DNA from: an uncultured Gammaproteobacteria bacterium | GTDB taxonomy: Bacteria > Patescibacteriota > Microgenomatia > UBA10105 > UBA927 | NCBI GenBank assembly: GCA_964553825.1 | Contig: CAZKLT010000004.1 | Location: 3,137 to 67,136, forward strand | Length of the DNA: 64,000 bases | Reading direction: 5' to 3' | Part shown: in pieces, positions 30,460 through 62,151 of the stretch | How positions within the stretch are numbered: the first letter of the stretch is position 1 | Layout: each line of letters opens with the position of its first letter | Notes under the pieces: generated by a model | The model's database searches: none | What the model was told of the DNA's origin: nothing | Seen by the model: only the letters and a program-made list of their open reading frames with translations | Position numbers and translations under genes: made by a program

Positions 30460-30474
30460 TCATGATAATACGTT

Positions 30475-35002: not shown

Positions 35003-35055
35003 AACCCGGGGAGCGAGTTTGCTCCAACTTGTTCCCTGGGTTCGTATCATTTTTT
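35003..35055 (+). terminator. Possible terminator (compound hairpin AACCCGGG...CCCTGGGTT then T5)
   Basis: Imperfect stem, 8-nt gap before T-run; weak. Confidence 0.3.
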
Positions 35056-35079
35056 CGTATTTGTGATACGATAAATATT

Positions 35080-38613: not shown

Positions 38614-39014
38614 GTGCATGGATACTCGCGGCACTTGTGTTTTGTCTAAGCGCGGTGGTTTCGGCGTACGTATCGCTTGCGCGCACAGCGTATGATCTGG
38701 TCGTGAACGATCAACCGGTCGGGACATCGATTGTGGTTGAGCGGCTGGTGCTTGAAAAAGGAGGCTATCTTGCCATCACACCGCTTTCCGGTCCAAACAC
38801 GCAGCAGTCAGTTTCCGACTATATGCCTGCAGGCGTATTTACTGATTTCAATGTGGATATCTATTGGGGAGACGAGCTTGATCTTCCGGCGCAGACGCCG
38901 GTAGTTGTACGGATCCTCGTGGATAACGGGGATGTGTACTTTGACTCGGAATTTGATGTACCTGCCCGAAACGCGCAGGGGCAGATGTATGAAAAAACGA
39001 TTGTCCTTCGGTAG
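38610..39014 (+). CDS. Small exported protein, family A (divergent)
   Basis: ATGA overlap with previous; VVNDQPVGTSIVVERLVLEKGGYLAI. Confidence 0.5.
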   Translation: MSAWILAALVFCLSAVVSAYVSLARTAYDLVVNDQPVGTSIVVERLVLEKGGYLAITPLSGPNTQQSVSDYMPAGVFTDFNVDIYWGDELDLPAQTPVVVRILVDNGDVYFDSEFDVPARNAQGQMYEKTIVLR

Positions 39015-41066: not shown

Positions 41067-41072
41067 TCAGGC

Positions 41073-42161: not shown

Positions 42162-42164
42162 ATG

Positions 42165-42740
42165 TTAGCGAAACGCAAAGCCGCCTGTATAGGTTTCATC
42201 TGTGCCGACCAGGGTGAAGTCGAGATAGTATATTTCGTTGTAGGTGTCGTCAGAAATGCGAGTCGCTTGCCACGTGCCGTTGGTGTCGGTACCCGCGATA
42301 CGCGTAAATGTGAGTGGTGTTTTCTTCGTATCGGTGTCGAGCCGCGCCGTGACCGACGTGATGGGGGATGTATGGGTGGCCTTTACGGTGATCGTCTGAG
42401 TGACACCGGGTTTCACGCCAAGCGGATCAAGGCTGAATTCGTAGATTTTGGGGCCCTTGGCTTTTGGACCCGGAGCATATTGGAATGTTTCTTTCCCGGG
42501 ATTAAGAAGTCGGGGAGACGGCTTGGGTCGCATGCTGGCGGTAGGAGTAGCGCCGCCCGATTCTTCTGCGGGCACACCGCTTAACCAAGAAACCATCTCA
42601 CCCTTTTGCGTAAAAATGTAGAATGCCAATAGAAGTACAATAGCACCAATGCCTATAAAAAGAGGGGTATTGGAGATGCCGTTGGACCTTACCTTATTCA
42701 CGATATGATTTCTTTTAGACTTTGCCTTATGTAATTTCAT
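42165..42740 (-). CDS. Hypothetical membrane-anchored protein (beta-rich ectodomain), operonic with Hint protein
   Basis: N-terminal TM (LFIGIGAIVLLLAFYIF); 4-nt gap to downstream Hint gene. Confidence 0.5.
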   Translation of the reverse strand: MKLHKAKSKRNHIVNKVRSNGISNTPLFIGIGAIVLLLAFYIFTQKGEMVSWLSGVPAEESGGATPTASMRPKPSPRLLNPGKETFQYAPGPKAKGPKIYEFSLDPLGVKPGVTQTITVKATHTSPITSVTARLDTDTKKTPLTFTRIAGTDTNGTWQATRISDDTYNEIYYLDFTLVGTDETYTGGFAFR

Positions 42741-42865
42741 GACAATGTCCTTATCTTCATCCTAGGAATACGCACATCTCTTGTCAAGGGGTAAACGTGA
42801 TATACGTTACTGACCGTTTACTATATAGTTGATACAACGATGTAAGATAGATTACTTGAGACTGA

Positions 42866-44047
42866 ATGAAAAAGGTGATATTTATCGGTGTTCTCGTGTT
42901 CCTTTTTGTTGCGTGGGCTTTCCGCGCCAAACCCCAGGTCAAATCGTACCCTGAAGTGTCCTATCTTGCAGCGCAGACTATGGACTTCGGACAGTTAAGT
43001 ACGTTTTTCACCAGGCTTGCGCAAACCAAGGGAGCCGCCTATGCGTTTGAGGTTCTCGGACAGGCGTCACTCCCGCCAAATACGGATATGCACCTGCTTG
43101 GTCATGTCGTGGGAGATGAATTATATAAAGAAAAAGGAATTGACGGGATGCGTATTTGTACGCAGGATTTTCGGAATGCCTGCTCTCATTCCATTGTTGT
43201 GGGATATTTTCTTGCCCATGGAGAAGAGGGATTGGGGGCGATAGCCGAAGCATGCAGAACTGCTCCGGGAGGAAGTGGCGCGTATACCATGTGTTTCCAC
43301 GGCCTTGGTCACGGTATTCTGGCAGCTGTTGACTACGATCTTCCCCGGGCTGTTGCCCTGTGCCAGAAAACGGGAACACTTCCGTACGGATACCGTGAGG
43401 CTTCCGAGTGTTCCAGCGGGGCCGTCATGGAGATTATATCCGGAGGGTTTCATAATAAGACACTTTGGGAAAAGGCCTCAAAACGCTATCTGTCCTTGAC
43501 CCAGCCGCTTCTTCCCTGTGTCGCTGACTATATGCCGGCAGTCGCGCGGCCGTCCTGTTTTGAATATCTCACTGGACACCTGGTTACGGCTGCGGGCGGC
43601 TCACTGGATACGGGTGTGCCGACGGATGAGGTCATTGTGCGCGCTATGCAAATGTGCACTCAGGTGGTTGACGCAGCTCCTCGGGATGCGTGTTACAAAG
43701 GATTTGGAAAAGAATTTATCGTCCTTGTGCACAATCGCGATACGCGGACATTGACGGATATGAACGATGAAGAAATGAACGAAACATACCGCCTGTGTGG
43801 CCTTGCTCGCGATACGCGCGGGGAACAGATGTGCCTGACGCATGCGCTTGATTCTCTCTACTGGGGAGGCGAAAACGATATCCGCGGGGCAGTACGGTTC
43901 TGTGCGCTGATGTCATCTCCGGTTATGAAGGAGACTTGTTTTGCGCACTTAACGGGTGCTATACAATTCTTTGCGAAGACCCCGAGGGAGAAAAACGAAG
44001 ACTGTGGAGCGCTTCCCGAAGCGTACAGAAGCAGGTGTTATGAATAA
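42866..44047 (+). CDS. Cys/His-rich paralog 3 (subtype D)
   Basis: DMHLLGHVVGDELY..CTQDFRNACSHSIVVG..CFHGLGHGI..CSSGAVME. Confidence 0.7.
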   Translation: MKKVIFIGVLVFLFVAWAFRAKPQVKSYPEVSYLAAQTMDFGQLSTFFTRLAQTKGAAYAFEVLGQASLPPNTDMHLLGHVVGDELYKEKGIDGMRICTQDFRNACSHSIVVGYFLAHGEEGLGAIAEACRTAPGGSGAYTMCFHGLGHGILAAVDYDLPRAVALCQKTGTLPYGYREASECSSGAVMEIISGGFHNKTLWEKASKRYLSLTQPLLPCVADYMPAVARPSCFEYLTGHLVTAAGGSLDTGVPTDEVIVRAMQMCTQVVDAAPRDACYKGFGKEFIVLVHNRDTRTLTDMNDEEMNETYRLCGLARDTRGEQMCLTHALDSLYWGGENDIRGAVRFCALMSSPVMKETCFAHLTGAIQFFAKTPREKNEDCGALPEAYRSRCYE

Positions 44048-45524
44048 CAGAAAGGCGATAACAGGAGGGACGATTGCCGTTTTTGCCGCATGCGTGTGGG
44101 TGTTTTGGGCAAAGGCGTTCGTCGTGGGAGACGGCAGGAGTATAACGTTCCGTCAGGACGGTTACCGGCCCACGCGATTAACCGTGCGCGTCGGGGATTC
44201 CGTGACGTTCAGAAACAATTCGGGCAAGCCATTCTGGCCAGCCAGCAATAACCACCCAATCCATGAACTGTATCCCGAATTCGATCCGCGTAAGCCGATT
44301 GCTCCCGGTGAGTCATGGCAGTTTACGTTTACCCAAGAAGGAAAATGGCGTTTTCATGATCATATATATCCGGAATTTCGCGGCACGATCATGGTGCTCC
44401 CTCCGGGGAAAACCACCCTTCCGCCGCTTGACTGCAGTGCGTCTGCTGATGCCCAAACAAAAGGTCGCTGCTGGGAGGAAACCCTCAGTGATGCCCTGGA
44501 AACACGCGGCATTGCGGGCGCGTTCAAGGAATTTTCCCGATTGTATAAAACGGACACCGACTTCATACGCAGCGGGTGTCATGTGCACGCCCATAGGATC
44601 GGGGATGAATTTTTCCAGGCATATGCATCCAAGCTGCGGAAGCTGGAGGGCATAGAATTGCCCGTGGAAACTATGAGCTGTGGATACGGGTTTTTCCACG
44701 GATTGTTTGAACATTTTTTCCGGAAGTATCCGGATGTAGAATTGGCGCGGGCGATTTGTGACGACTTGGATTCGCGCTACAGCAAGACAATTCCGCTTAT
44801 CCGTATCAACTGTTTCCATGGCGCCGGTCACGGACTGATTGCGGATCCTCCCGATCCTTCATCCTGGGGAAACCCAAAGTCGCTTGTGGCTGGGCCGCTT
44901 GCGCTGTGTGCGCAAATTTCCCATATACCCGATGAATCGCATGCCTGCATTGACGGGATATTCAATGTCGTATCCAGTTGGATGGGGGACGCCAAGTACG
45001 GTATGAGCATAGACGCGGCAGATCCGTTCTGGCTTTGTGAATCAGTCCCCGACGTGGCAAAGGAATCCTGTTATTATGAACAAATTATGGTAATGAGCGA
45101 GATGGAGAATAGGGATCTGCTTGCAATTACGCGGAAATACGTGGCACCGATTGCGGATCCGCAGATCGCAAGGCTTGTTATGTTCTCGCTTGCGGCATCG
45201 TTCATGCAAAAAGACGTCGCACTTGCCGATCACGCGCATATGCTCGTGAATTGTAGAAATGTGCCCGCCGGTCTGAAAGAACGTTGTTTAGAAGGCGTGT
45301 TAAACGGTTTTAAGGGACATGGCGAACCGGGAAATGAATACAACAAAGCGCTGGCATTCTGTGCGCTTCCCCAGATGACGCGGGAGGAACAGCAGGTCTG
45401 TTATCCGTATCTGGTAAGGATTCTTTGGGAGTTATATCCGGCCCAAAAAGTGTTGTCTCTTTGTTCAATGATTCCCAGTGAATACAGAAATGCCTGCGAA
45501 ACACGGATGATTCAGCAAAACTAA
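44040..45524 (+). CDS. Cys/His-rich paralog 4 with N-terminal cupredoxin-like domain (subtype C)
   Basis: TM, then ITFRQDGYRPTRLTVRVGDSVTFRNNSGKPFWPASNNHPIH...WQFTFTQEGKWRFHDHIYPEFRGTIMVL, then CHVHAHRIGDEFF..CGYGFFHGLFE..CFHGAGHG; 8-nt overlap with paralog 3. Confidence 0.7.
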   Translation: MNNRKAITGGTIAVFAACVWVFWAKAFVVGDGRSITFRQDGYRPTRLTVRVGDSVTFRNNSGKPFWPASNNHPIHELYPEFDPRKPIAPGESWQFTFTQEGKWRFHDHIYPEFRGTIMVLPPGKTTLPPLDCSASADAQTKGRCWEETLSDALETRGIAGAFKEFSRLYKTDTDFIRSGCHVHAHRIGDEFFQAYASKLRKLEGIELPVETMSCGYGFFHGLFEHFFRKYPDVELARAICDDLDSRYSKTIPLIRINCFHGAGHGLIADPPDPSSWGNPKSLVAGPLALCAQISHIPDESHACIDGIFNVVSSWMGDAKYGMSIDAADPFWLCESVPDVAKESCYYEQIMVMSEMENRDLLAITRKYVAPIADPQIARLVMFSLAASFMQKDVALADHAHMLVNCRNVPAGLKERCLEGVLNGFKGHGEPGNEYNKALAFCALPQMTREEQQVCYPYLVRILWELYPAQKVLSLCSMIPSEYRNACETRMIQQN

Positions 45525-45526
45525 CG

Positions 45527-46696
45527 ATGAAAACTGTCATATCGCACCGTTTCCCTTTCGTCATAGGTTTTGTTCTCGTGTTGGCTATCGGCGCAGGTCT
45601 CTTTGCGGGGAGTGGACAATTTGGCCGGCCTACCTGTGATCAGAAAGATGCGGAAGCACTGAAAAAATGTTGGGAAGCGGTGGTGTCAGTGTCTATGAAG
45701 AAGGGAGATATCGCAGGCGCATTTGATTCGCTGGCTGACCTCTATGGTGCCGCACCTAATCTGGGAGAAACGTGTCATAGTCTTACTCATGAGATAGGCC
45801 GAACGGCGTATCGGTTGTTTGCGCGCGATGTTGACTTTGGCATTACGCCGAAAACCGCATACTGTTCCTATGGCTTTTACCATGGGTTTATGGAAGAGCT
45901 GGTTTTGGCAAAAGGCGACATGAAGCTTGCGCGGGAATTTTGCAGTTATGTGGATCAGCAGCTTGTAAAGGTGAGTCCGGACGTGACGCTTCAGTGTTAT
46001 CACGGTATCGGGCACGGAACCGTCAATAATCATGATCCAAGAACATGGGGAGATCCGCAGAAGCTTATCGACCCGGCCATTGCGCTGTGTGAGGAAGTGG
46101 CGACGAATGACAGCGAAGTAAACCGATGTGCAACCGGGGTCTATAACGGACTTGCCGTTTTTTACAGCAACGGCGAATACAAATTAACGCTTGACCGAAA
46201 TGATCCGGTCGGCATTTGCAGAAGGCAGCCAGAGAAGTACCAGGATGCCTGTTATGTCAGTTTCAATACGCTTCTTTTGGGGTTGACGGGATATGATTTG
46301 GCAAAGGCTGCGACGTACCTTGCCCATATTCCCCAGGATGTGATTGCACAGCATGCCATGATTAACCTGGCATCTCCCGTCGGCACCAAACATATCACGG
46401 AAACAGACCATGCTCCAACGATTTCTGTCTGCCGGTCGCTGCCCGCGCGTATTCGGCTTGCGTGCATTCAGGGATATGCGTTTGGTTTTTTGGAACACGG
46501 TGAACCGACGAAAGAATACATAAAACCTCTTCAATTTTGCGAATCAAATCAGCTTACTACAGAAGAGCAAAATGCATGCTTTGAGTACATTTTAGGGTAT
46601 CTTCCCAGATGGTATGCCAAAGAGAAAGTTTTGATGATTTGTTCGGATCTTAATCCGAAATGGAAGGAATATTGTGAGAAGCAAACTATTCAATAG
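45527..46696 (+). CDS. Cys/His-rich paralog 5 (subtype B)
   Basis: KCWEAV..CHSLTHEIGRTAY..CSYGFYHGFMEEL..CYHGIGHG..CATGVYNGL. Confidence 0.7.
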   Translation: MKTVISHRFPFVIGFVLVLAIGAGLFAGSGQFGRPTCDQKDAEALKKCWEAVVSVSMKKGDIAGAFDSLADLYGAAPNLGETCHSLTHEIGRTAYRLFARDVDFGITPKTAYCSYGFYHGFMEELVLAKGDMKLAREFCSYVDQQLVKVSPDVTLQCYHGIGHGTVNNHDPRTWGDPQKLIDPAIALCEEVATNDSEVNRCATGVYNGLAVFYSNGEYKLTLDRNDPVGICRRQPEKYQDACYVSFNTLLLGLTGYDLAKAATYLAHIPQDVIAQHAMINLASPVGTKHITETDHAPTISVCRSLPARIRLACIQGYAFGFLEHGEPTKEYIKPLQFCESNQLTTEEQNACFEYILGYLPRWYAKEKVLMICSDLNPKWKEYCEKQTIQ

Positions 46697-48101
46697 AGCG
46701 CATGCATTTTTTCTGTTTACGGCATCAGGAATTTTGGGCCTCATTGCTTTTGTTGCTGTCGGCACCTGGTTTTCCAATACCGTTATTACCTTGACGGATG
46801 ACGGATTTTCTCCGAGGGTGGTAGTAGTGAGGAAAGGGGCGACAGTTCGCTTCAGTTCAAATCGTGGGCGATATTTCTGGCCCGCATCCGATCCGCACCC
46901 CATCCATACGAAGGAGCTGAGTTTTGATCCGAAGCGTGCCATTGCCCCGCAGGGTCAGTGGGAGTTTGTTCCCATGTCAGCAGGAATTTGGACATACCAT
47001 GATCACACCGCTCCGCAGTTTCGCGGGACGGTTATTGTACTTGCGGGCGACAGCAGCGTTTTGTCGTATGTGTGGGGACGTATTGGTCAGTGGGCTCGCA
47101 TCGTTTTGCTGAACACGCAGCGGCAAAGCGATGCATATTTCCGCGACTGCGGCCCTCTGGGTAAGGACTGTTGGGACAGAGCGTTTCTCGAAGTGGTCAA
47201 CCGCGAGGGGTCGCGGGAGGCATTAAGAATGGTGGATTATCTGCGGCGGACGTATCCTGAGTTTGCCAATTATTGCCACCAGTATGCCGATTTTATTGGT
47301 GACATTTCTTATTGGAATATACCTGCGGCGCGCAGAGTTCTTGATTTTGACATCTCGCTTGCCGGGCAGTGCTCAAGCGGCTACATGCACGGATATATGG
47401 GAGAGTTTATGTCACACGGTATTTTCGCGCAGGGTGTGGCATTTTGCGATCAGATTAGAGCCAAATACCCGGGAACAGAAGCGGCATTGGAGTGTTACCG
47501 GGGGATCGGCAATGGGCTTACCTTTCAAAACGGTTTTCTCTATTGGAATGATGAAACAGCGATCGTCGATCACGCTCTTGCCGGTTGCAGCGGGTTGGCA
47601 GAAGAAGATGCCTGTCGAAGTGGGGTATTTGTGGGGATAGATCACATGCATTTTGGCGTACACGGTTTTGAGTTACGACGTGATCCGAATGATCCGTTTG
47701 CGCTTTGCCGTGGCCGGGATACCGTTACCGAGGCTGCCTGTTATGATGCGACGATCTCATCCTTTTTTGCGGCGGTTGGTTATGATTTGTCCGAAGCGGC
47801 GAAGCATCTGCGCATACTACCCCTTATTCATGCCAAGCGCGTGGTGGAGCAAGTCGTGAAAATTCCTTACGAGCTGGAAGATTTTGAACGGAAAGGCGGA
47901 AATATGACCATTATTGCCTGGTGCCGATCAATCGGCGGTGCCTTACATCCTGCATGTTTTCGGGGATTTGTCCTGAAGTTATACACGATCGATGTTGAGT
48001 ATAATGGACAAAGTAGTCTTGCCCGCGAATTCTGTGGGAATTCATTTCTGAATCAGTCAGAGAAAGACATGTGTCAGCAGATATTCAATGAAGCCATATA
48101 A
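46674..48101 (+). CDS. Cys/His-rich paralog 6 with cupredoxin-like N-domain (subtype C); GTG start
   Basis: ITLTDDGFSPRVVVVRKGATVRFSSNRGRYFWPASDPHPIH...WEFVPMSAGIWTYHDHTAPQFRGTVIVL; 23-nt overlap with paralog 5. Confidence 0.65.
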   Translation: MRSKLFNRAHAFFLFTASGILGLIAFVAVGTWFSNTVITLTDDGFSPRVVVVRKGATVRFSSNRGRYFWPASDPHPIHTKELSFDPKRAIAPQGQWEFVPMSAGIWTYHDHTAPQFRGTVIVLAGDSSVLSYVWGRIGQWARIVLLNTQRQSDAYFRDCGPLGKDCWDRAFLEVVNREGSREALRMVDYLRRTYPEFANYCHQYADFIGDISYWNIPAARRVLDFDISLAGQCSSGYMHGYMGEFMSHGIFAQGVAFCDQIRAKYPGTEAALECYRGIGNGLTFQNGFLYWNDETAIVDHALAGCSGLAEEDACRSGVFVGIDHMHFGVHGFELRRDPNDPFALCRGRDTVTEAACYDATISSFFAAVGYDLSEAAKHLRILPLIHAKRVVEQVVKIPYELEDFERKGGNMTIIAWCRSIGGALHPACFRGFVLKLYTIDVEYNGQSSLAREFCGNSFLNQSEKDMCQQIFNEAI

Positions 48102-49269
48102 ACTCATTATTCCAATTTCATTATTTTTTCTGGTTACCGCTTCCTATGTGGGCCTGTATCGCGGAGCGGGATCGACGCCCCAACATGCAGCGCAGCGTGT
48201 CATCAGTCGGTGTCAGAACGAAGCCCACCGACCTGCCTGTTATGAGCGGGAGATTCCGAAACTCATGAACACGCTCTCCATGGAAGATGCCTTTGCCGTC
48301 ACCCGTCTGGTGCAGGACGCTGATCCAGCGTTTGCATACTGTCATGTGGTAGCGCATAAATTAACCGCGATAGAAACAAAAAAGAATCCTCTGAGGTGGA
48401 AAGACGTCATGCTCAGGTGTCCGCAATCGGCGTGTAATTACGGCTGCCTCCACGGATCGCTTATCGAACGGTTCCGCGGAGAAACACTCAGCGATACGCA
48501 GATCGCTCAAACCGAACTCAGCATAAAAGATCTCTGTGAGCCGCGCCCGGGATTTGCTCCAACGGAAATTGAGCGCACGATGTGTTATCACGGCATAGGA
48601 CATCTTGCGATGTATATGACCGGAGGAGATCCTGCGCGCAGTATTCCGGTATGTGAGCGGCTTGCGAAGCGGGACGATGGCCGGGAGTATATAAAAACGT
48701 GTGTTGAAGGCGTATTTATGACTGTTTTTCAGAGTATCGATCCTGAAGATCTCGCCCTCGTTATCGACATTAGGCCCAACAAGCAGGATGTTGGCGCTTT
48801 CTGTGAGCAGTACGGTGTATACGTGGCCAACTGCCGACGTGAATCTTACGCGATGTTCGCAGACGAAACCCAAACCGCCGAAGGACTCCGCTCTTTCTGT
48901 TCCTATGCCCGCGGAGAAGAGGAAAAGCGGGATTGTTATTGGGCGGTGATTAACGCCAAAACGACGATATTCTTTGAACAGTCCGATTCGGTTTCCCGGA
49001 TTGGAGCATACTGTCGATCGTTTCCGGCAGACACTCGCAGCTGGTGCTGGCGGGGAGCGGCTATGCGGTTAGTACAAATAGATCCGTTGAGGAATGTCCG
49101 TGCGGCTGATTCCGTCTGCGCTATGGGGTCGACACAAACAGAAATCCAATCCTGTTATCAGGATTTGCTTTATTATGCTGAATTCTCGTTTGAAAAAAAC
49201 AGCCAACCATATAAAGAGTATTGCGGCGGCCTTGCCGAATCCTGGAGACAGCAATGCGTCAGTCAATAA
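48088..49269 (+). CDS. Cys/His-rich paralog 7 (subtype A)
   Basis: RCQNEAHRPACYEREIPKLM..YCHVVAHKL..CNYGCLHGS..CYHGIGHLAMYMTGGD. Confidence 0.7.
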   Translation: MKPYKLIIPISLFFLVTASYVGLYRGAGSTPQHAAQRVISRCQNEAHRPACYEREIPKLMNTLSMEDAFAVTRLVQDADPAFAYCHVVAHKLTAIETKKNPLRWKDVMLRCPQSACNYGCLHGSLIERFRGETLSDTQIAQTELSIKDLCEPRPGFAPTEIERTMCYHGIGHLAMYMTGGDPARSIPVCERLAKRDDGREYIKTCVEGVFMTVFQSIDPEDLALVIDIRPNKQDVGAFCEQYGVYVANCRRESYAMFADETQTAEGLRSFCSYARGEEEKRDCYWAVINAKTTIFFEQSDSVSRIGAYCRSFPADTRSWCWRGAAMRLVQIDPLRNVRAADSVCAMGSTQTEIQSCYQDLLYYAEFSFEKNSQPYKEYCGGLAESWRQQCVSQ

Positions 49270-50450
49270 AAAGGAAACCATTGATCGTGGGAACACTTAT
49301 AGCAGCGTGCGTGGGCTTGCTTGCCGTTGGCGTCTGGTATGTGTCGCGGGGAGCGAGCGTATCGTCAAAAATGGTGGCAGCCTTGGCCTCAAGCTGCGCT
49401 CAGTCAACGGAAACTGCCAAAACGCAGTGTTGGGAAGATCTCGTGCGTAAGGTTATCCGGGAGCATGGCGTACGGGCGGCGTTTGACGTTATATCCGCTC
49501 TGCATGATGCAGATGCGCAATTTGCACAAACCTGTCACGCCATGGTGCATATTGTGGGACAACAGGCATACGGAGAATTTCATACGACCGGACGGGTTGA
49601 TTTGTCAGCGAAGGCAGCGTCCTGCGCATTTGGGTTCTATCATGGATTTATGGAGATGTTGGTAGCGCGCAAAGGGACGATTGCCCAGGCGCAGCAATTT
49701 TGTGATTATGTCGATCGGATACTCGGAAATGAGACACCGAATGCGATATATAGCTGCACTCACGGGATTGGACACGGATCTACCGATATTCATAATCCTC
49801 AGTATTATGGGAATGAGCGGGCGGTCATAGCGCCTGCGATTGCAAATTGTGAGGCATTTGCCCGGGACGATCATGAGCTGACGCTCTGCGCGACGGGCAT
49901 ATTTGATTCGATTGCGCTTGCATACTACAACAACGGAGAAAATGGGTTTGTGATGAAAAAAGAGGACCCGCTCTGGCTCTGCCACGAGCAACCCTTAAAG
50001 TATAAGGAGGCGTGCTATCGTGATATGATGCCAGCCGTGATTTGGATGGGGGAGCACGACCTGACCCTTGCCGCCCCGATCGTTTTCACGCACGCAGAGG
50101 ACGACTACAAGGCGTTTGCCCTTGAAGCCCTTGCGGAAAACAGCGTTCGGTTCATTGTGAACAAAAAACCAACCACCGTATATCTGCCATATTGTCGCTC
50201 CCTTACGGGAAGTCTCTCTGATGCCTGTGTACGCGGATTGGCGGCAGGAGCGATGCAATTTGGCAGACCTGATCGTGAATATGAAGACGCGTTGGTATTC
50301 TGTAAAGACGACCTGCTCACTGCCGGAGAGAAGGATATCTGCATGAAGCGGATTTTGGATTATGCACGCGGGCGGTATTCGCAAAAGCGGGTTTCTGATA
50401 TCTGCAGGGAAACAGAAGAAATCTGGCGACCGTACTGCACACAACTATGA
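49254..50450 (+). CDS. Cys/His-rich paralog 8 (subtype B)
   Basis: QCWEDLV..CHAMVHIVGQQAY..CAFGFYHGFMEML..CTHGIGHG..CATGIFDSI; start at ATG 49254 (16-nt overlap). Confidence 0.7.
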   Translation: MRQSIKRKPLIVGTLIAACVGLLAVGVWYVSRGASVSSKMVAALASSCAQSTETAKTQCWEDLVRKVIREHGVRAAFDVISALHDADAQFAQTCHAMVHIVGQQAYGEFHTTGRVDLSAKAASCAFGFYHGFMEMLVARKGTIAQAQQFCDYVDRILGNETPNAIYSCTHGIGHGSTDIHNPQYYGNERAVIAPAIANCEAFARDDHELTLCATGIFDSIALAYYNNGENGFVMKKEDPLWLCHEQPLKYKEACYRDMMPAVIWMGEHDLTLAAPIVFTHAEDDYKAFALEALAENSVRFIVNKKPTTVYLPYCRSLTGSLSDACVRGLAAGAMQFGRPDREYEDALVFCKDDLLTAGEKDICMKRILDYARGRYSQKRVSDICRETEEIWRPYCTQL

Positions 50451-51676
50451 AACTGAGCGGTGGGAAAAAGCTATTGTTGGCGGGACTGTTGGTGCTTCTT
50501 GTGGCGGAAATTGCATATCTTATCGTCCCAACGCTCAATCGTTCGAAAGACGATCTTCTGACGCTTGCGTCCCAGTCGATTCTGCGTGCATGCGAAAACA
50601 ACCAGCACCGGCCGACCTGCTATGACCGGGAGATTCCCAAGCTTATGAACCGATTTACCCTTGAGGATGTTTTTGCGGTTACCAAGCGTATACAGTCTCA
50701 GGATCAGTCCTATGCGTATTGCCACGTGTTGGGACACGCAGTCTCTGCCGCCGAAACGAAAAAAGACCCGTCTCTTTGGCGTGAAGTCATAACACGATGT
50801 CCCAGCGGCGTGTGCTCAAACGGGTGTGTCCATGGGGCCTTTCAGGAGCGATTCCGCACCGACGTTCTTCCGGATCATGAAATTGAGGTGATAAAGCCCG
50901 ACTTGCTCACGGTGTGTGAGCCACGGGATTCATGGAAACCCACAAGTCTTGAGCAGGCAACGTGCTACCACGCACTTGGGCACCTGCTCATGTATATTAC
51001 GGGTGCGGATCTGACGAAATCCGTGGGACTGTGCGATCAGCTGGCCGGGGTAAAAGACGGGAGCCAGTTTGATTTCCGTCATATCTGCTACGATGGCGCG
51101 TTTATGCAGATATTTCAGCCGCTTGAGCCGGAAGACCGGGCGCTGGTTGCCGGAAAACAGCCGGCCAAAGCAGATGTGTCGGCCTATTGCAGCGTTTGGG
51201 AGGGGCAGCGGCAGGTTTCATGCATCAGTGAGTCGTGGCCGCTTTTCCTGAACGAACTACAGGATCCTTCTTATCTCTCGACGTTTTGCGGGCAGCTTCC
51301 CTCCGATTTCTCACCGCGGTGTTATACCGGTATGTTTTATATACTCGTCGTACAGTTTCGGTTTGACCTCTCGCGGATGAAAGTCTATTGCGACGGGCTA
51401 CCCCAGAATTTGAGCGGGGCATGCTACGCCAATACGGCATCCCGTCTTATTGAGACTGACTGGGGAAATGTGTATAAGGCAGCCGCATGGTGCAAGGACG
51501 CCGGGAGTGTCACCGCGCAGCAGGACTGCTATCAGGAGCTTGCGTTTTATGCGTCATATAATTTCCATATGGGGTCGCCGGAATTCTATTCCCTGTGTGA
51601 GGCCCTGCCTGAGCCCTGGAAAGACGCCTGTCTGAAAGGTTCGACGGAAGGAAATCTGAAGCCAGTGAATCAATAG
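50447..51676 (+). CDS. Cys/His-rich paralog 9 (subtype A)
   Basis: ATGA overlap; RACENNQHRPTCYDREIPKLM..YCHVLGHAV..CSNGCVHGAF..CYHALGHLLMYITGAD; five C-x9-11-C[YL] units in C-half. Confidence 0.7.
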   Translation: MKLSGGKKLLLAGLLVLLVAEIAYLIVPTLNRSKDDLLTLASQSILRACENNQHRPTCYDREIPKLMNRFTLEDVFAVTKRIQSQDQSYAYCHVLGHAVSAAETKKDPSLWREVITRCPSGVCSNGCVHGAFQERFRTDVLPDHEIEVIKPDLLTVCEPRDSWKPTSLEQATCYHALGHLLMYITGADLTKSVGLCDQLAGVKDGSQFDFRHICYDGAFMQIFQPLEPEDRALVAGKQPAKADVSAYCSVWEGQRQVSCISESWPLFLNELQDPSYLSTFCGQLPSDFSPRCYTGMFYILVVQFRFDLSRMKVYCDGLPQNLSGACYANTASRLIETDWGNVYKAAAWCKDAGSVTAQQDCYQELAFYASYNFHMGSPEFYSLCEALPEPWKDACLKGSTEGNLKPVNQ

Positions 51677-51677
51677 T

Positions 51678-52667
51678 ATGCGTATGCAACAAATATCATC
51701 GCCAATATGGTGGGCGTTTTGCGCGCTGGGCGTGACGGTTGCCGTTATCAGTGCCGCTGCGGGCATGATGGCGCCGCCGGAGCCGAGCGCCCCTGTCACC
51801 GATTCAGCGGGTGCCGTGCGGCAACTGTCGGGTATTATCCGCGCGCGCGGAGTAGATGCTGCGCAGGCGTTTTTTCTTAAACACTTCTTCTCGTACTCTG
51901 ACAACCACAGGCACTATCTGGGCCATCTAATCGGTGAGCACATATATAAGACATATGGTATGGACGGCATTAGCAGGTGTTATTCCAGTATGGAGTTTGG
52001 CTGTATCCACGGGTTTCTGCTGACTGGCTATATGGATCGGGGCGATCCGTTTCTTGACGCGGTCATTTCACGTTGCAGTCAGGATTTGCCGGAGGGGTGC
52101 ATGCATGGGCTCGGTCATGCGTTTTTGCTTATACGGGGATACGATATTGCCGATGTACGGTCCAGTATTGACGCCTGTCTTGCCCTGAGCACGCAGTTGC
52201 CGTACCGGCAGCAGTGTATTCAGGGGGTATATATGGAATACAATGACCGGTTTCTGGTTGACGGATCGCTGAGCGCAAATTCGTTTAAACCAAGAGCATA
52301 CGATCCAGACAATCCATATGCTCCGTGTGACACCGAGCCGGCACAGCTTCAGCCGATTTGTTATCGGGAACTCGTGTTGTACTGGTCGAATATTTCTACA
52401 CTGAACCCAGAGCTCATGGCTGATCTGTGCAACGGATTGTCCGGCGAAAACCGCTATGAGTGTTATTGGAGCTTGGGCGGTCTCGTAGCCGGTGACAGTA
52501 AAGAAATAGAGTCTCCGCTTGTCGAATGCTTACAGTTTGCACCGAAAGATTTGTCCGCATGTCTGAAAGGCGCAGTCCTATCAGTGGCATTTCAGAGCCA
52601 AAGGCCCCGTTCTGAATTCTGTGCACCACTACCTGCTGCTGTAGCTAAGGAGTGCCGCACATGGTAA
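51678..52667 (+). CDS. Cys/His-rich paralog 10 (subtype D)
   Basis: HYLGHLIGEHIY..CYSSMEFGCIHGF..CMHGLGHAF..CIQGVYMEY. Confidence 0.7.
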   Translation: MRMQQISSPIWWAFCALGVTVAVISAAAGMMAPPEPSAPVTDSAGAVRQLSGIIRARGVDAAQAFFLKHFFSYSDNHRHYLGHLIGEHIYKTYGMDGISRCYSSMEFGCIHGFLLTGYMDRGDPFLDAVISRCSQDLPEGCMHGLGHAFLLIRGYDIADVRSSIDACLALSTQLPYRQQCIQGVYMEYNDRFLVDGSLSANSFKPRAYDPDNPYAPCDTEPAQLQPICYRELVLYWSNISTLNPELMADLCNGLSGENRYECYWSLGGLVAGDSKEIESPLVECLQFAPKDLSACLKGAVLSVAFQSQRPRSEFCAPLPAAVAKECRTW

Positions 52668-53677
52668 AGATAAAGCATATTATCGGCATCGGCCTTCTTG
52701 TAATTGCAGTAGTTTTCGGTGCGCTGTACGCAGCCTCATCCCGCAGCGACAGCCTTTCGCGCGTTTTTGCCGGCGGTGACTTGTCGCCGGGGAAGCTGCG
52801 GGGTGCCTTCATGGCGACCATCCAGCGTGACGGTCCGGCCGAAACGTACACCAGGCTCAAGGTGCTGCTTGCCGGTATCGACGCTCCTCAGCAACACAGC
52901 ATCGCTCATATATTCGGGAATGTACTTTATAAAACAAACGGACTGTCGGGCCTGACGGTCTGCGATGCCAGCTTCGGATTTGGGTGTTACCATAGCTTTT
53001 TTGGCGCTGCCATCAGCGAAAAGGGGGAGAGCATTGTCACAGAGCTTGATCGTATTTGTGTTTCGGCGTATGGACCGATGGGACTTGGGTGTCCCCATGG
53101 GATAGGGCATGGCCTTGGAGCGTATTTCGGGCCGGACAGGATCGACGAGCAGCTTGCCCTGTGCAGTACCCTCAGCTGGAAAGGGAAGTATCTCGGGTGT
53201 CAGGGTGGCGTTTTTATGGAATATAATACGCCCACAGAAAGCCAGAGTGATACAGCCACAACTTCCGTGCGGCCCTTTGATCCCGATCGGCCGTACGGTA
53301 TCTGTCAGCAGATTGACGACACATTTCAGCCGGCCTGTTTCCTGGAGTTGTCGGGCTGGTGGGAACAGGCTATGGGTAGGGACTACGCGAGAATAGGGGC
53401 GTTATGCCGGCACGTGCAAGGCAGGAACAATCGGGACAGTTGTTTTCTGGGTATCGGATATGCGGTAGCACAGTCTACCTGGTATGATCTGCAGCAGACG
53501 CGCGATGCATGTGCAGCCGCAGGGGATGCCGATGAAGAAATGCTGTGTACCGCAGGCGCCGCGTGGAGCTTTTTTGCCAATCCGGCGGTGCGGGGGCAGG
53601 CCGCGGACGTGTGTCAGCGTCTGGCGAACGATATGCGGGCAGATTGTGTTAAGCGATCCGACCTACTTTCCCTATAG
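52661..53677 (+). CDS. Cys/His-rich paralog 11 (subtype D)
   Basis: HSIAHIFGNVLY..CDASFGFGCYHSF..CPHGIGHGL..CQGGVFMEY. Confidence 0.7.
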   Translation: MVKIKHIIGIGLLVIAVVFGALYAASSRSDSLSRVFAGGDLSPGKLRGAFMATIQRDGPAETYTRLKVLLAGIDAPQQHSIAHIFGNVLYKTNGLSGLTVCDASFGFGCYHSFFGAAISEKGESIVTELDRICVSAYGPMGLGCPHGIGHGLGAYFGPDRIDEQLALCSTLSWKGKYLGCQGGVFMEYNTPTESQSDTATTSVRPFDPDRPYGICQQIDDTFQPACFLELSGWWEQAMGRDYARIGALCRHVQGRNNRDSCFLGIGYAVAQSTWYDLQQTRDACAAAGDADEEMLCTAGAAWSFFANPAVRGQAADVCQRLANDMRADCVKRSDLLSL

Positions 53678-53680
53678 GAT

Positions 53681-55159
53681 ATGAGAAAGTTTCGTGCATT
53701 TTTACTGCTGCGATACCGAATTGTGATCCTTATTTTGGCTATTTTTCTTGCCTGCGCAGGCGCCATCTGGTTTTGGGTTCCCCAACCGCGTACGGTGGCT
53801 TTGGGTGAAAAAGGATTTGAACCCGCTGAACTTCGTGTGCCGGTCGGTACGGTGATCACCTTCGAAAATCACACACAAAAAACCTTTTGGCCGGCCAGCA
53901 ACTTCCACCCGTCGCACAAGATATATCCAGAGTTTGACTCGAAGAAGCCCATACCGGCGGGTGATTCCTGGAGTTTCCGTTTTTCGGTTGCCGGAGTATG
54001 GCGTTACCATGACCATCTCAACAGCCGCCACACCGGAACAATAATCGTGTATGCATCACCGTTTGTCCGGGCACAACAACTGTGCGACGGCGACATTGAT
54101 GTCCTGCCGACGAAGACGCAGGAGCGCTGTTGGATACAGGATATAGAAAAGACGCTCGTGACAAAGGGGATTGACGCGGCGTTTGAGCAGTTCGGCCGCC
54201 TGTACGAGACGAAAAATGCATTCTCCGCCGACTGTCATGATGTTACTCATTTGCTGGGTGAGGCGGCGTATAGGGATTATGTGCGCCACGGAACAGTCAT
54301 AGAGTCGACAAAAACAGCCTACTGCGGGTACGGATTCTATCATGGATTCATCGAGGCGCTCTTGTTTACCACCGGGGATTTTCAGCAGGCAAAGTCCTAC
54401 TGTCATGCCGTACAAGAGAAGCTGGAAGAGAAGATTGTCTCACCCAATGCCATTTATTCATGCTATCACGGGCTTGGTCACGGAACATTTGATACGCAGG
54501 CGTACTCAGAGTGGGGCGACGACGAACAGATGCTTGCATCTGCGCTGGATACCTGCGACCGGGTAACCCGGGGCGAGGAGCAGGAATTGGTGAAACAGTG
54601 TGCAACCGGCGTGTTTAATGCCCTGGCCAATGCGTACAACAACAATACGTATAATCTTTCGTTCGACCGGCAGGCGCCGTGGGGCGTGTGCGATAATCAG
54701 AAGAACGATGAGCACAAGAAGGCATGTTTCCGTGAAGTTACCGCATCATATATAAAGGGGACCGTGAAGGATACGAAGGAGGGCCTTACGAAACTCTCGC
54801 AGATCGTAGATCCCGTAGGAGCGGGGGCTGCCATGTTTGCGTATATGAGTGAGGAGGCGCGATTGGGAATGGACGTGATTGCCGCAAGTGAATTCGTCCG
54901 TCTTTGCAACACGCTTCAATCTTCTCTGCTGCGCGCGGCGTGTGCGCAGGGAGTGGGGGCTGGTTTATTTCTGTGGGGCAAACCGGGACACGAACATGAG
55001 AAGGCGATTGCATTCTGTATGACCCAGGGACTGGGAGTCGAAAGTCGGGATGCGTGCATGACCTATATTGTGCCCCGTATACGCACTGTGTATAACCGGG
55101 ATAGAGTTTCGGCCGTCTGCCGCGCGATTGATCCGGCATATCAGCATTTATGTCAATGA
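53681..55159 (+). CDS. Cys/His-rich paralog 12 with cupredoxin-like N-domain (subtype C)
   Basis: VALGEKGFEPAELRVPVGTVITFENHTQKTFWPASNFHPSH...WSFRFSVAGVWRYHDHLNSRHTGTIIVY; CHDVTHLLGEAAY..CGYGFYHGFIEAL..CYHGLGHG..CATGVFNAL. Confidence 0.7.
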   Translation: MRKFRAFLLLRYRIVILILAIFLACAGAIWFWVPQPRTVALGEKGFEPAELRVPVGTVITFENHTQKTFWPASNFHPSHKIYPEFDSKKPIPAGDSWSFRFSVAGVWRYHDHLNSRHTGTIIVYASPFVRAQQLCDGDIDVLPTKTQERCWIQDIEKTLVTKGIDAAFEQFGRLYETKNAFSADCHDVTHLLGEAAYRDYVRHGTVIESTKTAYCGYGFYHGFIEALLFTTGDFQQAKSYCHAVQEKLEEKIVSPNAIYSCYHGLGHGTFDTQAYSEWGDDEQMLASALDTCDRVTRGEEQELVKQCATGVFNALANAYNNNTYNLSFDRQAPWGVCDNQKNDEHKKACFREVTASYIKGTVKDTKEGLTKLSQIVDPVGAGAAMFAYMSEEARLGMDVIAASEFVRLCNTLQSSLLRAACAQGVGAGLFLWGKPGHEHEKAIAFCMTQGLGVESRDACMTYIVPRIRTVYNRDRVSAVCRAIDPAYQHLCQ

Positions 55160-56697
55160 AACTGATTTTTCTATTCGTATGCTTCTGTATGGCCGTGGCT
55201 TTCCGGACAGGTGTTGCGCTGGCGGCGCCGGCGACTTCGGGAGCCCATATTGTTCTGACGAATGACGGATTTCAGCCGAAAGTACTTCAGATCCCCGTGG
55301 GCAGCAGCGTTACGTTTACCACAACGCGGGGACGGTATTTTTGGCCCGCATCAGATGAGCATCCGTCGCATAGTATATATCCGGAATTTGACCCCCGCGC
55401 ACCCATTTCACCGGAGGATTCGTGGTCCCATACCTTCGAGAGACCTGGCGTGTGGAAGTTTCATGACCATGTATCGCCGTCGTATACAGGAGAAATACGA
55501 GTGATGGAAACGGGTGACCGGGTGGTTCCGATAGAAAATAAGGAAAACGTAATTGTAAAACAATCCATACTATTAAAATTGAATAATTGGATTGTTCAGA
55601 ATGTTCTCCCTCTTAATTATCGTCGGTGTATGGATGAGGAGCTGAATCACGGATCCAGAATCCAGTGCTGGGAGCATGTAGTGGTGAAAATAACCCAGCG
55701 CAAAGGACTCATCACGGCACTTAACTTCGTGCATCGGCAGAGAAGCCGCGATACTGCCTTTGCATCCGACTGTCACGTCTATGTGCATCGCATCGGGGAG
55801 GAGTATTACTGGAAGTTTTTCAATGATCGGAAAATTGAAGTATCGGATAAGTTTGGCCTGTGTGATCAGGGATTTTTTCATGGGTTTATGCAGGAATTTA
55901 CGAGTCATGGGACAAATATGGTACAGGCGAAACGGTATTGCGACACGCTTCTGTCAAGAATGAAGCAAGATGAGCACGGAGAAATGCTGATTCAACAATG
56001 CTACCATGGAATCGGCCACGGAGCCGCATTTCTGTATGCCGCATCATTGTGGGGTAATACCGATGAAATTATACGACGATCGATTGCCGACTGTCGGTCA
56101 CTTATCGATGGAAATCCGCGTATGTGCATCAGCGGAGTCTTTGGCGGAATTGCGGCGATGCATTGGGGTCTTCACGGGTTTACGCTCGAAATGGACCCTT
56201 CTAATCCTTGGGAGCTCTGTAAAAACCAGGTGAAACCCGAGAACTTGGAATGCTATGATCAGCTTGTCCCCGTGCTTTTCAGCAAGGTTGATCTGGATTT
56301 AGAAGCCGCGGGTCGGTTGGTCGCTCAAATATCGGATGCGGAAATTCAACGTGTTGCCATGATACATTTAGGGAGCATGCCTTCGTATACGATTGTGTCC
56401 AAGACGGAGGATTACTCACAGATTGTTCAATCGTGCCGACGTTTTGCCTCCCCGCTTGATCGCGACTGCCTGTATGGATTTTCCGGTGCAATTACCCGTA
56501 TTGGCGCATTGCCCGAAGCGCAGGCGCGGTCTATCCGGTTTTGTGAGTCGTCATATCTGACTGAGGCCGAACGAGCAGTCTGTTATGATAGTGTCCGTCA
56601 GCAGATATCCATACATTATTCCGAGCGGGAAGCTGTACGGTTCTGTGAACGGATATCGGCTCGGTACCAGCATTCGTACTGCAGTAATCAGCCATGA
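55150..56697 (+). CDS. Cys/His-rich paralog 13 with cupredoxin-like N-domain (subtype C)
   Basis: IVLTNDGFQPKVLQIPVGSSVTFTTTRGRYFWPASDEHPSH...WSHTFERPGVWKFHDHVSPSYTGEIRVM; CHVYVHRIGEEYY..CDQGFFHGFMQEF..CYHGIGHG. Confidence 0.7.
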   Translation: MSMKLIFLFVCFCMAVAFRTGVALAAPATSGAHIVLTNDGFQPKVLQIPVGSSVTFTTTRGRYFWPASDEHPSHSIYPEFDPRAPISPEDSWSHTFERPGVWKFHDHVSPSYTGEIRVMETGDRVVPIENKENVIVKQSILLKLNNWIVQNVLPLNYRRCMDEELNHGSRIQCWEHVVVKITQRKGLITALNFVHRQRSRDTAFASDCHVYVHRIGEEYYWKFFNDRKIEVSDKFGLCDQGFFHGFMQEFTSHGTNMVQAKRYCDTLLSRMKQDEHGEMLIQQCYHGIGHGAAFLYAASLWGNTDEIIRRSIADCRSLIDGNPRMCISGVFGGIAAMHWGLHGFTLEMDPSNPWELCKNQVKPENLECYDQLVPVLFSKVDLDLEAAGRLVAQISDAEIQRVAMIHLGSMPSYTIVSKTEDYSQIVQSCRRFASPLDRDCLYGFSGAITRIGALPEAQARSIRFCESSYLTEAERAVCYDSVRQQISIHYSEREAVRFCERISARYQHSYCSNQP

Positions 56698-57908
56698 AAA
56701 CATATCTTGCTACAAGAGGAACAGGGATTTCTGTGATCTGGCTTTTGGTGGTTCTGTTCGGTGTGGGGACGGCGCTTGCGACCCGCGTGTATTATCCGGC
56801 CAAAAAGTCGCTTTCAGCCTACGCAGACGATGTGTATGAAAAATGTGCTCCGGCGCCGCATGCCCCATCCTGTTATGACGAGGAAATTCCGAGACTCATG
56901 GACCGCATATCTATGGAAGAGGCGTTCGAGGTGACCCGGTTTGTCCAGCAAAAAGACCCGCGATACCTGTACTGCCATGTACTTGGGCACAACATAAGCT
57001 ACCGTGAGGCGGATCGCGATGTATCGAAGTGGAAAGATGTGGTCGCCCGGTGTCCCACGACGTTTTGCAATAACGGGTGTCAGCACGGTGCGCTTATGCG
57101 CAGATTTAACGCGGAGAGTCTCACCGATGCGCAAATTCAACAGGTGAAGCCGGATCTGCAGGATGTTTGTGAGCCGAGAGGGAACTGGAATCCCCGCGAA
57201 GTAGAGCGCTCCATGTGCTATCACGCCTTGGGGCACCTTCATATGTTTATGACCAATGCGGATATTAATAAATCCGTGAACTTATGTCAGGATGTGGCGA
57301 CGAAACCTGATGGACGTAACTATGTGCAGACGTGCACGCAGGGCGTCCTTATGTCTGTCTATCAACCGCTTGAACCTGAGGATTTTGCGCTTGTGCGCGG
57401 ATTGACCCCGACGAAGGAAACAGTGAACGCATTTTGCGATCAGTTTACGGGTGAAGCCTGGTTTGCCTGTCATAGTGAATCATGGCCCTTGTTTCTGCAG
57501 GACATGAAAGAACCTGCCGGTCTCATGCGGTTTTGCAGTTATACGGATGAACCGTACCACAAAAAGAATTGTATAGGCACGGGCATGAGCATTCTCACTG
57601 TCTTGATGGTCGTGGAGCAGGGAGGCAGGCTTGATACACTTACGGCGTATTGCGATCAGTTGTCGGGTATCCACAAGGGGGATTGTTACGCGCATGCCGC
57701 GTTTCGGCTTGTGCAGATAGATCCTCGATATACCGCCCTGGCCAAGTCCGTGTGTGATGCCGCTTCCCAGTCCGGTGTTGGCGATGCGTGTTTCTCGTAT
57801 CTGCTTCAGCATGTCGACCAAAGCTTCGCTCCCGGACAAGAGGCAGATGCGTTTTGTTCCGCATTTGAGGAACCGTGGCAGACAAAATGCTCGACGCGGA
57901 CCTATTGA
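56694..57908 (+). CDS. Cys/His-rich paralog 14 (subtype A)
   Basis: ATGA overlap; KCAPAPHAPSCYDEEIPRLM..YCHVLGHNI..CNNGCQHGAL..CYHALGHLHMFMTNAD. Confidence 0.7.
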   Translation: MKTYLATRGTGISVIWLLVVLFGVGTALATRVYYPAKKSLSAYADDVYEKCAPAPHAPSCYDEEIPRLMDRISMEEAFEVTRFVQQKDPRYLYCHVLGHNISYREADRDVSKWKDVVARCPTTFCNNGCQHGALMRRFNAESLTDAQIQQVKPDLQDVCEPRGNWNPREVERSMCYHALGHLHMFMTNADINKSVNLCQDVATKPDGRNYVQTCTQGVLMSVYQPLEPEDFALVRGLTPTKETVNAFCDQFTGEAWFACHSESWPLFLQDMKEPAGLMRFCSYTDEPYHKKNCIGTGMSILTVLMVVEQGGRLDTLTAYCDQLSGIHKGDCYAHAAFRLVQIDPRYTALAKSVCDAASQSGVGDACFSYLLQHVDQSFAPGQEADAFCSAFEEPWQTKCSTRTY

Positions 57909-61370: not shown

Positions 61371-61447
61371 TATGGTTATTGTAGTTATCCGAATTTTTCT
61401 GTCAAGATGATGTTGCTTTTTACTAAGTGTGTTGCCATACTGAACGT

Positions 61448-62128: not shown

Positions 62129-62151
62129 ACGGAATGCGGTACAGTAAAATC

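Follow-up and report, generated by a model that had tools for sequence, protein, structure and literature searches.

Tandem alpha/alpha hairpins bridged by disulfides have been described in the Sel1-like repeat (SLR) proteins HcpB and HcpC, which are Helicobacter cysteine-rich proteins (PDB 1KLX and 1OUV), and mitochondrial COA7 (PDB 7MQZ), in which each repeat carries a Cys pair, spaced by 7-10 residues, that bridges both helices, and the repeats build a superhelix (PMC8892353, PMC3851747). The alpha/alpha repeats of COA7 are 30-36 amino acids (aa) long, with intra-repeat disulfides at C28-C37, C62-C71, C100-C111, C142-C150, and C179-C187 (PMC8892353). In this study, we analyzed a 64-kb stretch of contig CAZKLT010000004.1 (the window, to which all positions given without a locus name refer), where 14 co-directional genes encode Cys- and His-rich proteins of one family, and we concentrated on the complete open reading frame (ORF) at 50447..51676 (+), which specifies 409 aa plus a stop codon and belongs to a subfamily with 20 Cys. 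Its ATG overlaps the stop codon of the upstream paralog (ATGA), and a protein identical to its product is present in NCBI as P0001. The family of this protein, hereafter the 50447 family, appears to resemble HcpB/HcpC and COA7 in that all occupy an exported or oxidizing compartment and are built of tandem alpha/alpha hairpins of ~30-36 residues, and the C100-x10-C111 spacing of COA7 is that of the 50447 family units. Our analysis makes it reasonably likely that the 50447 protein is a membrane-anchored, outward-facing, disulfide-stapled ectodomain of alpha-solenoid-like construction with a five-His metal site.

The 20 Cys of the 50447 protein (positions 49, 58, 92, 118, 123, 127, 157, 173, 196, 214, 248, 259, 281, 292, 315, 326, 349, 361, 384, and 395) all follow the membrane anchor; they make up nine C-x8-17-C units and a single cross pair, C92/C123. 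Starting at C248, successive Cys are separated by gaps that alternate between 10-11 and 21-22 residues, and the five units of the C-terminal half show a first-Cys-to-first-Cys period of 33, 34, 34, and 35 residues; the N-terminal half has an irregular Cys period of 39-52 residues. An earlier note on this DNA had described successive C-x8-11-C[YFW] units, and all seven peptides that it quoted were located in the protein, at Cys pairs 49/58, 157/173, 248/259, 281/292, 315/326, 349/361, and 384/395. The unit formula itself held in part: the spacing is 8-11 in seven of the nine units and an aromatic residue follows the second Cys in six of nine, but two units have a spacing of 15-17. Units C118-x8-C127 and C196-x17-C214-Y, which fit the series, were absent from that list, as was the cross pair C92/C123. 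Across 339 homologous domains, to which all residue frequencies and co-occurrence values below refer, an aromatic residue followed the second Cys at a frequency of 0.50-0.86 in seven of the nine units, compared with 0.107 for Y/F/W in the background, but at just 0.21 after C127 and 0.05 after C395. The motif C-x(8-11)-C-[YFW] was observed four times, a count equaled or exceeded in 6 of 100,000 ectodomain shuffles (mean 0.26), and the 12 Cys pairs at a lag of 33-35 residues (shuffle mean 2.7) were reached in 2 of 100,000. A family hidden Markov model derived from the paralog alignment A1 matched 14 ORFs in the window and no others; they lie on the + strand between 38905 and 57905, and each of them displays the alternation of ~10- and ~21-25-residue gaps, which bears out the claim of a periodicity common to the 14 paralogs; six of the 14 lack one Cys pair, which leaves a gap of 59-60 residues.

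The repeat is a real structural unit of the 50447 protein. For the internal-repeat test, a 62-sequence ortholog alignment (A2) was cut into ten units, and all pairs were compared by hhalign. Units aligned in register for U7-U9 (P=5e-8), U4-U8 (5e-6), U6-U7 (1.1e-5), U5-U6 (2.7e-5), and U5-U7 (4e-5), and column-shuffled controls reached the observed scores in 0 of 40 cases each (z = 5-9), revealing significant internal repeats among the C-terminal units. With the Cys masked, U7-U9 and U4-U8 remained clearly above the shuffles, U6-U7 and U5-U7 became marginal, and the similarity of the other unit pairs vanished. The AlphaFold2 model computed from A2 is all-helical, with a mean predicted local distance difference test (pLDDT) value of 93.6, a predicted template modeling score (pTM) of 0.89, and 356 of 409 residues at a pLDDT of at least 90; the C-terminal 174 residues modeled alone adopted the same fold (pLDDT 94.6). 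When the Cys were mapped onto the DSSP string of the model, helix A spanned 7-9 residues, the last being the first Cys, usually with an aromatic residue just before it, and helix B, of 11-18 residues, carried the second Cys some two turns into its length; the two are joined by a turn of four residues (GQLP, DGLP, EALP), often of the form x-x-L-P. Regular helix A/helix B units with a period of 33-35 aa extend across residues 240-409, and here the proposed solenoid of ~35-aa repeats agrees with a confident all-alpha model, while the irregular N-terminal half departs from it.

The regular part comprises unit U5 (residues 240-272, 51164..51262, +; C248-x10-C259, then I), U6 (residues 273-306, 51263..51364, +; C281-x10-C292-Y, a pair lost jointly in the 16-Cys subfamilies), U7 (residues 307-340, 51365..51466, +; C315-x10-C326-Y), U8 (residues 341-375, 51467..51571, +; C349-x11-C361-Y), and U9 (residues 376-409, 51572..51673, +; C384-x10-C395-L). 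Preceding it are U0 (residues 40-75, 50564..50671, +), a C49-x8-C58-Y helix hairpin, an irregular His/Cys core (residues 84-187, 50696..51007, +) with five invariant His and the cross pair C92/C123, and U4 (residues 188-239, 51008..51163, +; C196-x17-C214-Y), which holds the invariant G217 and F219. Foldseek against the PDB returned no match at E<=0.001 for either the whole model or the C-terminal fragment. Its neighbors were all weak (best E 0.02-0.09) and all alpha-solenoids (HEAT/ARM/TPR-like): VPS35, importins, designed armadillo proteins, and similar proteins for the whole model (E ~0.02-0.15, template modeling (TM) score ~0.2-0.25) and the TPR-like domain of Nup358, VPS35, and the HEAT-like repeats of AlkC/AlkD for the fragment (TM <=0.45). 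Such generic alpha-solenoids (VPS35, importins, the Nup358 N-terminal domain, AlkC/AlkD) share stacked antiparallel helix pairs with the 50447 family but, in contrast to it, are cytosolic and have no disulfides, membrane anchor, or His cluster.

In working principle, the disulfide-bridged SLRs of HcpB/HcpC and COA7 seem to be the closest analogs of the 50447 family, with no detectable relatedness between them. Membership in the Sel1/Hcp group was considered and rejected: hmmscan of 10 paralogs against Pfam at E<=1 gave no Sel1 or TPR match, whereas the same library scored the TPR proteins of the window strongly; hmmsearch of all PDB chains with the A2 profile at E<=10 yielded 0 matches; and hhalign of the A2 profile against HcpC (sequence checked against 1OUV) returned a probability of 0.6%. 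Neither Hcp nor COA7 was among the top 50 Foldseek matches of the whole model or of the repeat fragment. The motif [aromatic]-C-x2-L-P-x6-C-[aromatic], with its short helix A of 7-9 residues, is not the SLR consensus, and the 50447 family further differs from SLR proteins in its irregular N-terminal half with a five-His cluster and from Hcp/COA7 in its membrane anchor, its restriction to the candidate phyla radiation (CPR, Patescibacteria), and its arrays of up to 14 genes. A point of likeness is that COA7, too, binds a cofactor, heme, through His/Met. The earlier description of a new architecture was overstated, given that disulfide-bridged alpha/alpha repeats of 30-36 residues are known from HcpB/HcpC and COA7 (PMC8892353, PMC3851747). 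What is new here is an undescribed, very large CPR family and its His-cluster module; the principle of a disulfide-stapled alpha/alpha solenoid is already known.

The location of the ectodomain follows from its N terminus. The membrane anchor (50471..50527, +; approximately residues 9-27, hydropathy 2.6) comes after K2, K7, and K8 and forms one continuous long helix, residues 5-30, in the AlphaFold2 model, and the predicted orientation is N-in/C-out. A Lys-rich N terminus with a hydrophobic anchor is present in 219 of 231 single-domain homologs, and this combination therefore places the domain of the 50447 family outside the cytoplasm, in agreement with the extracellular placement proposed earlier. 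With regard to the Cys, there is a good probability that the two residues of each unit form an intra-unit disulfide stapling helix A to helix B. Even numbers of ectodomain Cys (20, 16, 14, 18, and 12) occur in 218 of 219 anchored homologs, a parity whose independence is overstated, since the homologs are related, although the count nevertheless varies yet stays even. All 14 window paralogs likewise have an even count once the anchor Cys are excluded. Cys pairs are also retained or lost together: for C92/C123, both residues were present in 261 domains, neither in 78, and one only in 0 (phi 1.00); for C281/C292, the corresponding numbers were 234, 101, and 4 (phi 0.97); and phi was 0.89 for C384/C395 and 0.83 for C349/C361. 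Lost pairs are replaced by I/V/L plus A at 281/292 and by G/A/T plus F at 92/123, and such substitution by a large and a small hydrophobic residue is as expected for two buried positions that touch. The intra-repeat disulfides of COA7, at spacings of x7, x8, and x10, and the similar ones of HcpB/HcpC are a precedent for such pairs (PMC8892353, PMC3851747), and the disulfide-forming machinery reported from CPR genomes (PMC6744442) is also in line with them. The suggestion that each repeat is clamped by a disulfide or a shared metal thus appears to survive in its first half, as even parity, pair co-loss, and compensating substitutions point to a pairwise clamp, while independent pair loss makes a shared metal seem less favorable.

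Two other arrangements of the Cys were examined and set aside, which leaves pairing within units as the sole scheme that accommodates both the truncated paralogs and the independent loss of distant pairs. Pairing between units, with the second Cys of unit i bonded to the first Cys of unit i+1, does not match the truncated paralogs, which end on complete intra-unit pairs, and the joint loss of 281 and 292 would leave 259 and 315 orphaned. Cys4 or Fe-S-type clusters shared between units are at odds with the independent loss of distant pairs and with the occurrence of 14 and 18 Cys, which are not multiples of four. Csp proteins are helical copper storage proteins lined with Cys. In a rival reading, the Cys pairs would be ligands, for example of Cu(I) or Zn, through their thiolates rather than disulfides, and the protein would store or buffer metal outside the cytoplasm, Csp-like in idea; we consider this very unlikely, even though the location of 20 Cys on helices, the invariant His, the fusions to cupredoxin-like domains, one ArsR-family neighbor, and the shared-metal option of the earlier note could be cited in its favor. 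Each repeat has one pair, ~34 residues from the next, and pairs distant in the chain (118/127 and 281/292) are lost independently; inter-unit Cys4 sites do not fit the counts of 14 and 18; the replacement of lost pairs by packed large and small hydrophobic residues is as expected for buried cystine; the location is extracytoplasmic in a lineage that has disulfide-forming machinery; and the core domain matched no Pfam family. No family profile in Pfam or NCBIfam, whether for Csp or for other known metal-binding families, matched the core domain.

The strongest conservation in the family lies not in the repeats but in five His, flanked by Gly, within the irregular N-terminal half, which were absent from the earlier account. 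H93 was conserved in 339 domains, H97 in 335, H129 in 336, H175 in 336, and H179 in 338 (>=99% each), G126, G130, G178, and G217 were conserved at 97-100%, and F219 likewise ranked among the most strongly conserved positions. The His occur in the motifs C-H-x3-H, G-C-x-H-G, and C-Y-H-x2-G-H, which in the 50447 protein read C92-H93-x3-H97, C118..C123-x2-G126-C127-x-H129-G130, and C157-x15-C173-Y-H175-x2-G178-H179. Each His is located 1-2 or 5-6 residues past a paired Cys, and the B-type helices that bear them belong to three successive units. With somewhat less certainty, we infer that the five His may be aligned along a single face of the solenoid as a metal or cofactor site and that the invariant Gly nearby would let the helices pack closely. 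The statement that the protein is a repeat architecture rather than a globular enzyme therefore lacks support, because five invariant His and the Gly point to a metal or active site.

An active site without a tightly bound metal is the substance of another explanation, in which the protein is a novel extracytoplasmic enzyme that acts on polymers of the envelope or of a host, for instance as a hydrolase, lyase, or oxidase, with the His cluster and the Tyr of C-Y-H as catalytic residues and a groove that binds the polymer. The invariant His and Gly motifs, the presence of Tyr after C173 in 241 of 339 domains, the polysaccharide and envelope biosynthesis context, with carbamoyltransferase genes beside arrays in three other genomes, and an alpha/beta-hydrolase domain fused to one homolog are compatible with it. 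We nevertheless judge it quite improbable, as no similarity to an enzyme family was detected by sequence or fold, no acidic or nucleophilic residue is conserved family-wide, and 14 paralogs that share a catalytic core yet are otherwise very divergent would be unusual. A closed alpha/alpha toroid enzyme (LanC-like, or a glycoside hydrolase/lyase barrel) was also considered as a candidate and discarded, with no profile match and none among the Foldseek matches.

The function of the 50447 family is probably metal-linked, and copper is our leading guess for the metal, because cupredoxin-like domains recur either as fusions to the family or in genes directly upstream of its arrays. Cupredoxin_1 domains were fused in six of the 10 multi-domain homologs scanned. 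In the window, four paralogs, at 44040-45524, 46674-48101, 53681-55159, and 55150-56697 (all +), carry a cupredoxin-like domain in the N-terminal ~110 aa past the anchor; the Pfam Cupredoxin_1 threshold was reached for 44040, the scores for 53681 and 55150 fell below it, and the domain of 46674 was seen in the alignment. These four domains display conserved F-W-P-A-S-x2-H-P-x-H and H-D-H motifs, and their cupredoxin fold may carry a metal site of another kind, rich in His. Amicyanin and plastocyanin chains and Pfam Cupredoxin_1 match only the N-terminal domain of such paralogs and fusions and not the 50447 ORF, whose product had no Pfam match of any kind, the cupredoxin domain included. Elsewhere, membrane-anchored proteins of 150-170 aa head the arrays of two other CPR genomes (L001, 7108-7620; L004, 7220-7672). 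They end in ...YGYGCDxSTGAxGxFLVT, with one Cys, one Met, and no second His, and by eye they look cupredoxin-like. A gene for an ArsR-family (HTH_5) regulator is divergently transcribed beside the array-head gene in L001.

The 50447 protein has one N-terminal anchor helix followed by approximately ten helix-turn-helix units. In the mechanism that we propose, intra-unit disulfides would staple helix A to helix B, and C92-C123 would tie together two helices of the N-terminal core, resulting in a rigid ectodomain with 10 disulfides. An MdbA-like family of thiol-disulfide oxidoreductases, often adjoining VKOR, is reported to be enriched in CPR genomes (PMC6744442), and an oxidative folding system of this MdbA-like/VKOR type would make the disulfides. 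In the first three units, the His sit just after the stapled Cys, and the five together might form one metal-binding, possibly catalytic site, so that the repeats would serve as the scaffold and the His cluster as the functional part.

Several observations weigh against this picture. The Cys and His are near-invariant, which makes classical covariation inapplicable to most pairs, and shared ancestry of all units is thinly supported by sequence when the Cys pair and the residues beside it are left out of account, and is not proven. No Dsb, MdbA, or VKOR gene was found on looking through the 64-kb window. As regards the metal, no acidic ligand is conserved family-wide, no known metal-binding family profile in Pfam or NCBIfam, nor any PDB sequence, matches the core domain, and the ArsR neighbor was seen in a single genome lineage (L001/L002). 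In the fused cupredoxin-like domains, the type-1 copper ligands are replaced relative to amicyanin (Cys92 by Asp, His95 by Tyr, and Met98 by Phe), and the copper link is therefore circumstantial.

The same stapled ectodomain could also be purely structural or adhesive, a surface solenoid acting as a rigid stalk or as a binding surface for contact with host cells or matrix, in which the His are structural (e.g., a buried hydrogen-bond network) and neither metal nor catalysis is involved. The surface-gene neighborhood (LRR, DUF7282, Hint-domain, pilin-like, and glycosyltransferase genes), FG-GAP/ASPIC proteins nearby or fused in other genomes, and homologs that chain 4-7 copies behind one anchor in the manner of beads on a string would suit such a role, and solenoids of the SLR/TPR type are typically interaction scaffolds (PMC3851747). 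However, adhesins and surface antigens usually diverge fast, whereas here orthologs are 45-72% identical across CPR phyla; five His and four Gly remain near-invariant across subfamilies that are just 16-20% identical, a pattern typical of a cofactor or active site; and the recurrent cupredoxin-like partners would be left unexplained. We accordingly regard a purely structural role as unlikely. The related idea of a fast-evolving, variable surface antigen is likewise unlikely when the identity of orthologs in other CPR phyla is set against the 16-38% of the window paralogs.

Returning to the metal-site reading, a bolder extension, which we offer only tentatively and consider rather doubtful, is that the 50447 family represents a CPR-wide superfamily of extracytoplasmic metalloproteins with a penta-His center, possibly of copper, in a disulfide-stapled solenoid whose fold has no solved relative, and that these proteins handle metal or redox chemistry at the surface with degenerate cupredoxin-like partners, are encoded in arrays or concatenated into giant multi-domain surface proteins, and are central to episymbiosis. 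CPR bacteria rely on host cells and possess very small genomes, and for the majority of the surface proteins specific to their lineages no function is known (PMC6744442). Against this background, a family that counts its members in the thousands, is assigned to no family in Pfam or NCBIfam, and lacks any relative that is solved or similar in structure would stand next to the Hcp/COA7 SLR proteins as a second lineage, independent of the first, with disulfide bridges in its alpha/alpha repeats, and the combination of a disulfide-stapled ectodomain with an invariant five-His site would provide a concrete entry point for experiments.

The 50447 family is large, unnamed, and essentially restricted to CPR/Patescibacteria. 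An exhaustive profile search retrieved 7,758 representatives of 50%-identity clusters at E<=1e-3 and 3,133 at E<=1e-30; the core domain matched no family in Pfam or NCBIfam, and our literature searches found no relevant description of the family. Homologs, titled only "hypothetical" or "uncharacterized," come from Gottesmanbacteria, Sungbacteria, Colwellbacteria, Microgenomates, and others. Among 80 loci with lineage-naming titles, most are Patescibacteria/CPR, ~20 are "uncultured Gammaproteobacteria," one is Verrucomicrobiia, and one is Acidimicrobiales. Metagenome-assembled genomes with non-CPR titles (L005, L006, L016, L019, L028, and others) carry orthologs of 42-59% identity in CPR-like tandem arrays. 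The Gammaproteobacteria, Verrucomicrobiia, and Acidimicrobiales titles are probably labeling or binning errors. Orthologs of the 50447 subfamily share 40-72% identity across CPR lineages, whereas the identity of the 50447 protein to its window paralogs is 37-38% for 48088 and 56694 and 16-20% for the rest; because orthologs are closer across lineages than paralogs are within the window, the paralogy is ancient. At least one further family member adjoins the ortholog in 81 of 84 loci. The homologs P0121-P0125 (1,726-3,580 aa, P0121 being the longest at 3,580 aa) repeat the entire ~330-aa domain 4-7 times in tandem and have 81-144 Cys, with a single N-terminal hydrophobic anchor and essentially no internal transmembrane segments. 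Because some homologs hold 4-7 domain copies behind a single anchor, we suggest that paralogs encoded as separate genes work jointly or in series. FG-GAP repeats (in P0128) and an alpha/beta-hydrolase (in P0210) were seen as further fusion partners.

In the window, the array of 14 co-directional paralogs (38989..57908, +) is tightly packed or overlapping and occupies ~19 kb of the 64 kb. Paralogs 1-3 are located at 38989-40128, 40125-41066, and 42866-44047, followed by paralog 4 at 44040-45524 with an N-terminal cupredoxin-like domain, paralog 5 at 45527-46696, paralog 6 at 46674-48101, again with such a domain, and paralogs 7 and 8 at 48088-49269 and 49254-50450. Paralog 9 is the ORF analyzed here (50447-51676), and the array continues with paralogs 10 and 11 (51678-52667 and 52661-53677), paralogs 12 and 13 (53681-55159 and 55150-56697), each with an N-terminal cupredoxin-like domain, and paralog 14 (56694-57908), all on the + strand. 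The sole interruption consists of two minus-strand genes at 41073-42740. One of them (41073-42161, -) encodes a secreted-looking protein of 362 aa with a Tyr/Ser/Gly-rich low-complexity stretch (YYAYSQSNYYAYSQSSYYSYSYGYGQASYYGYG...) and a C-terminal Hint/pretoxin-HINT domain (Pfam PT-HINT, 1.5e-10). Locus L003 is syntenic with the window, and a Hint-domain gene holds the equivalent place there.

The genes neighboring the arrays of the 50447 family are surface or envelope genes. Here and elsewhere, they encode leucine-rich-repeat (LRR), DUF7282, Hint-domain, and pilin-like proteins, PMT_2/TPR glycosyltransferases, sugar-modifying enzymes, FG-GAP/ASPIC proteins, and carbamoyltransferases. Two LRR proteins (36174-36875, -, and 37345-38070, -) and two DUF7282 proteins (35029-35637, +, and 35710-36171, +) are encoded immediately upstream of the array; DUF7282 proteins are also encoded beside the array in the Gottesmanbacteria locus L085. 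Downstream, at 61427-63214 (+), three consecutive small proteins have a prepilin N-terminal methylation motif and are therefore type IV pilin or pseudopilin-like, and pilin-like genes precede the array in L085 as well. NodU/CmcH-type carbamoyltransferases (Carbam_trans_N/C) are encoded beside arrays in L001 (13140-14852), L085 (579-2288), and L086 (1-1542), and no such gene was seen in the 64-kb window. At 24148-32073, there is a cluster of large membrane proteins that contain PMT_2 domains (of the dolichyl-phosphate-mannose-type glycosyltransferase), and two of them (908 aa and 644 aa) have long C-terminal TPR arrays. A dense cluster for sugar-nucleotide modification and glycosyl transfer at 6391-23118 comprises DegT-family aminotransferases, of which there are three when the one at 57988-59223 is counted, along with epimerases/dehydratases, hexapeptide acyltransferases, GT2 enzymes, and methyltransferases, and at 12707-13456 a Ferric_reduct-like membrane protein is encoded.

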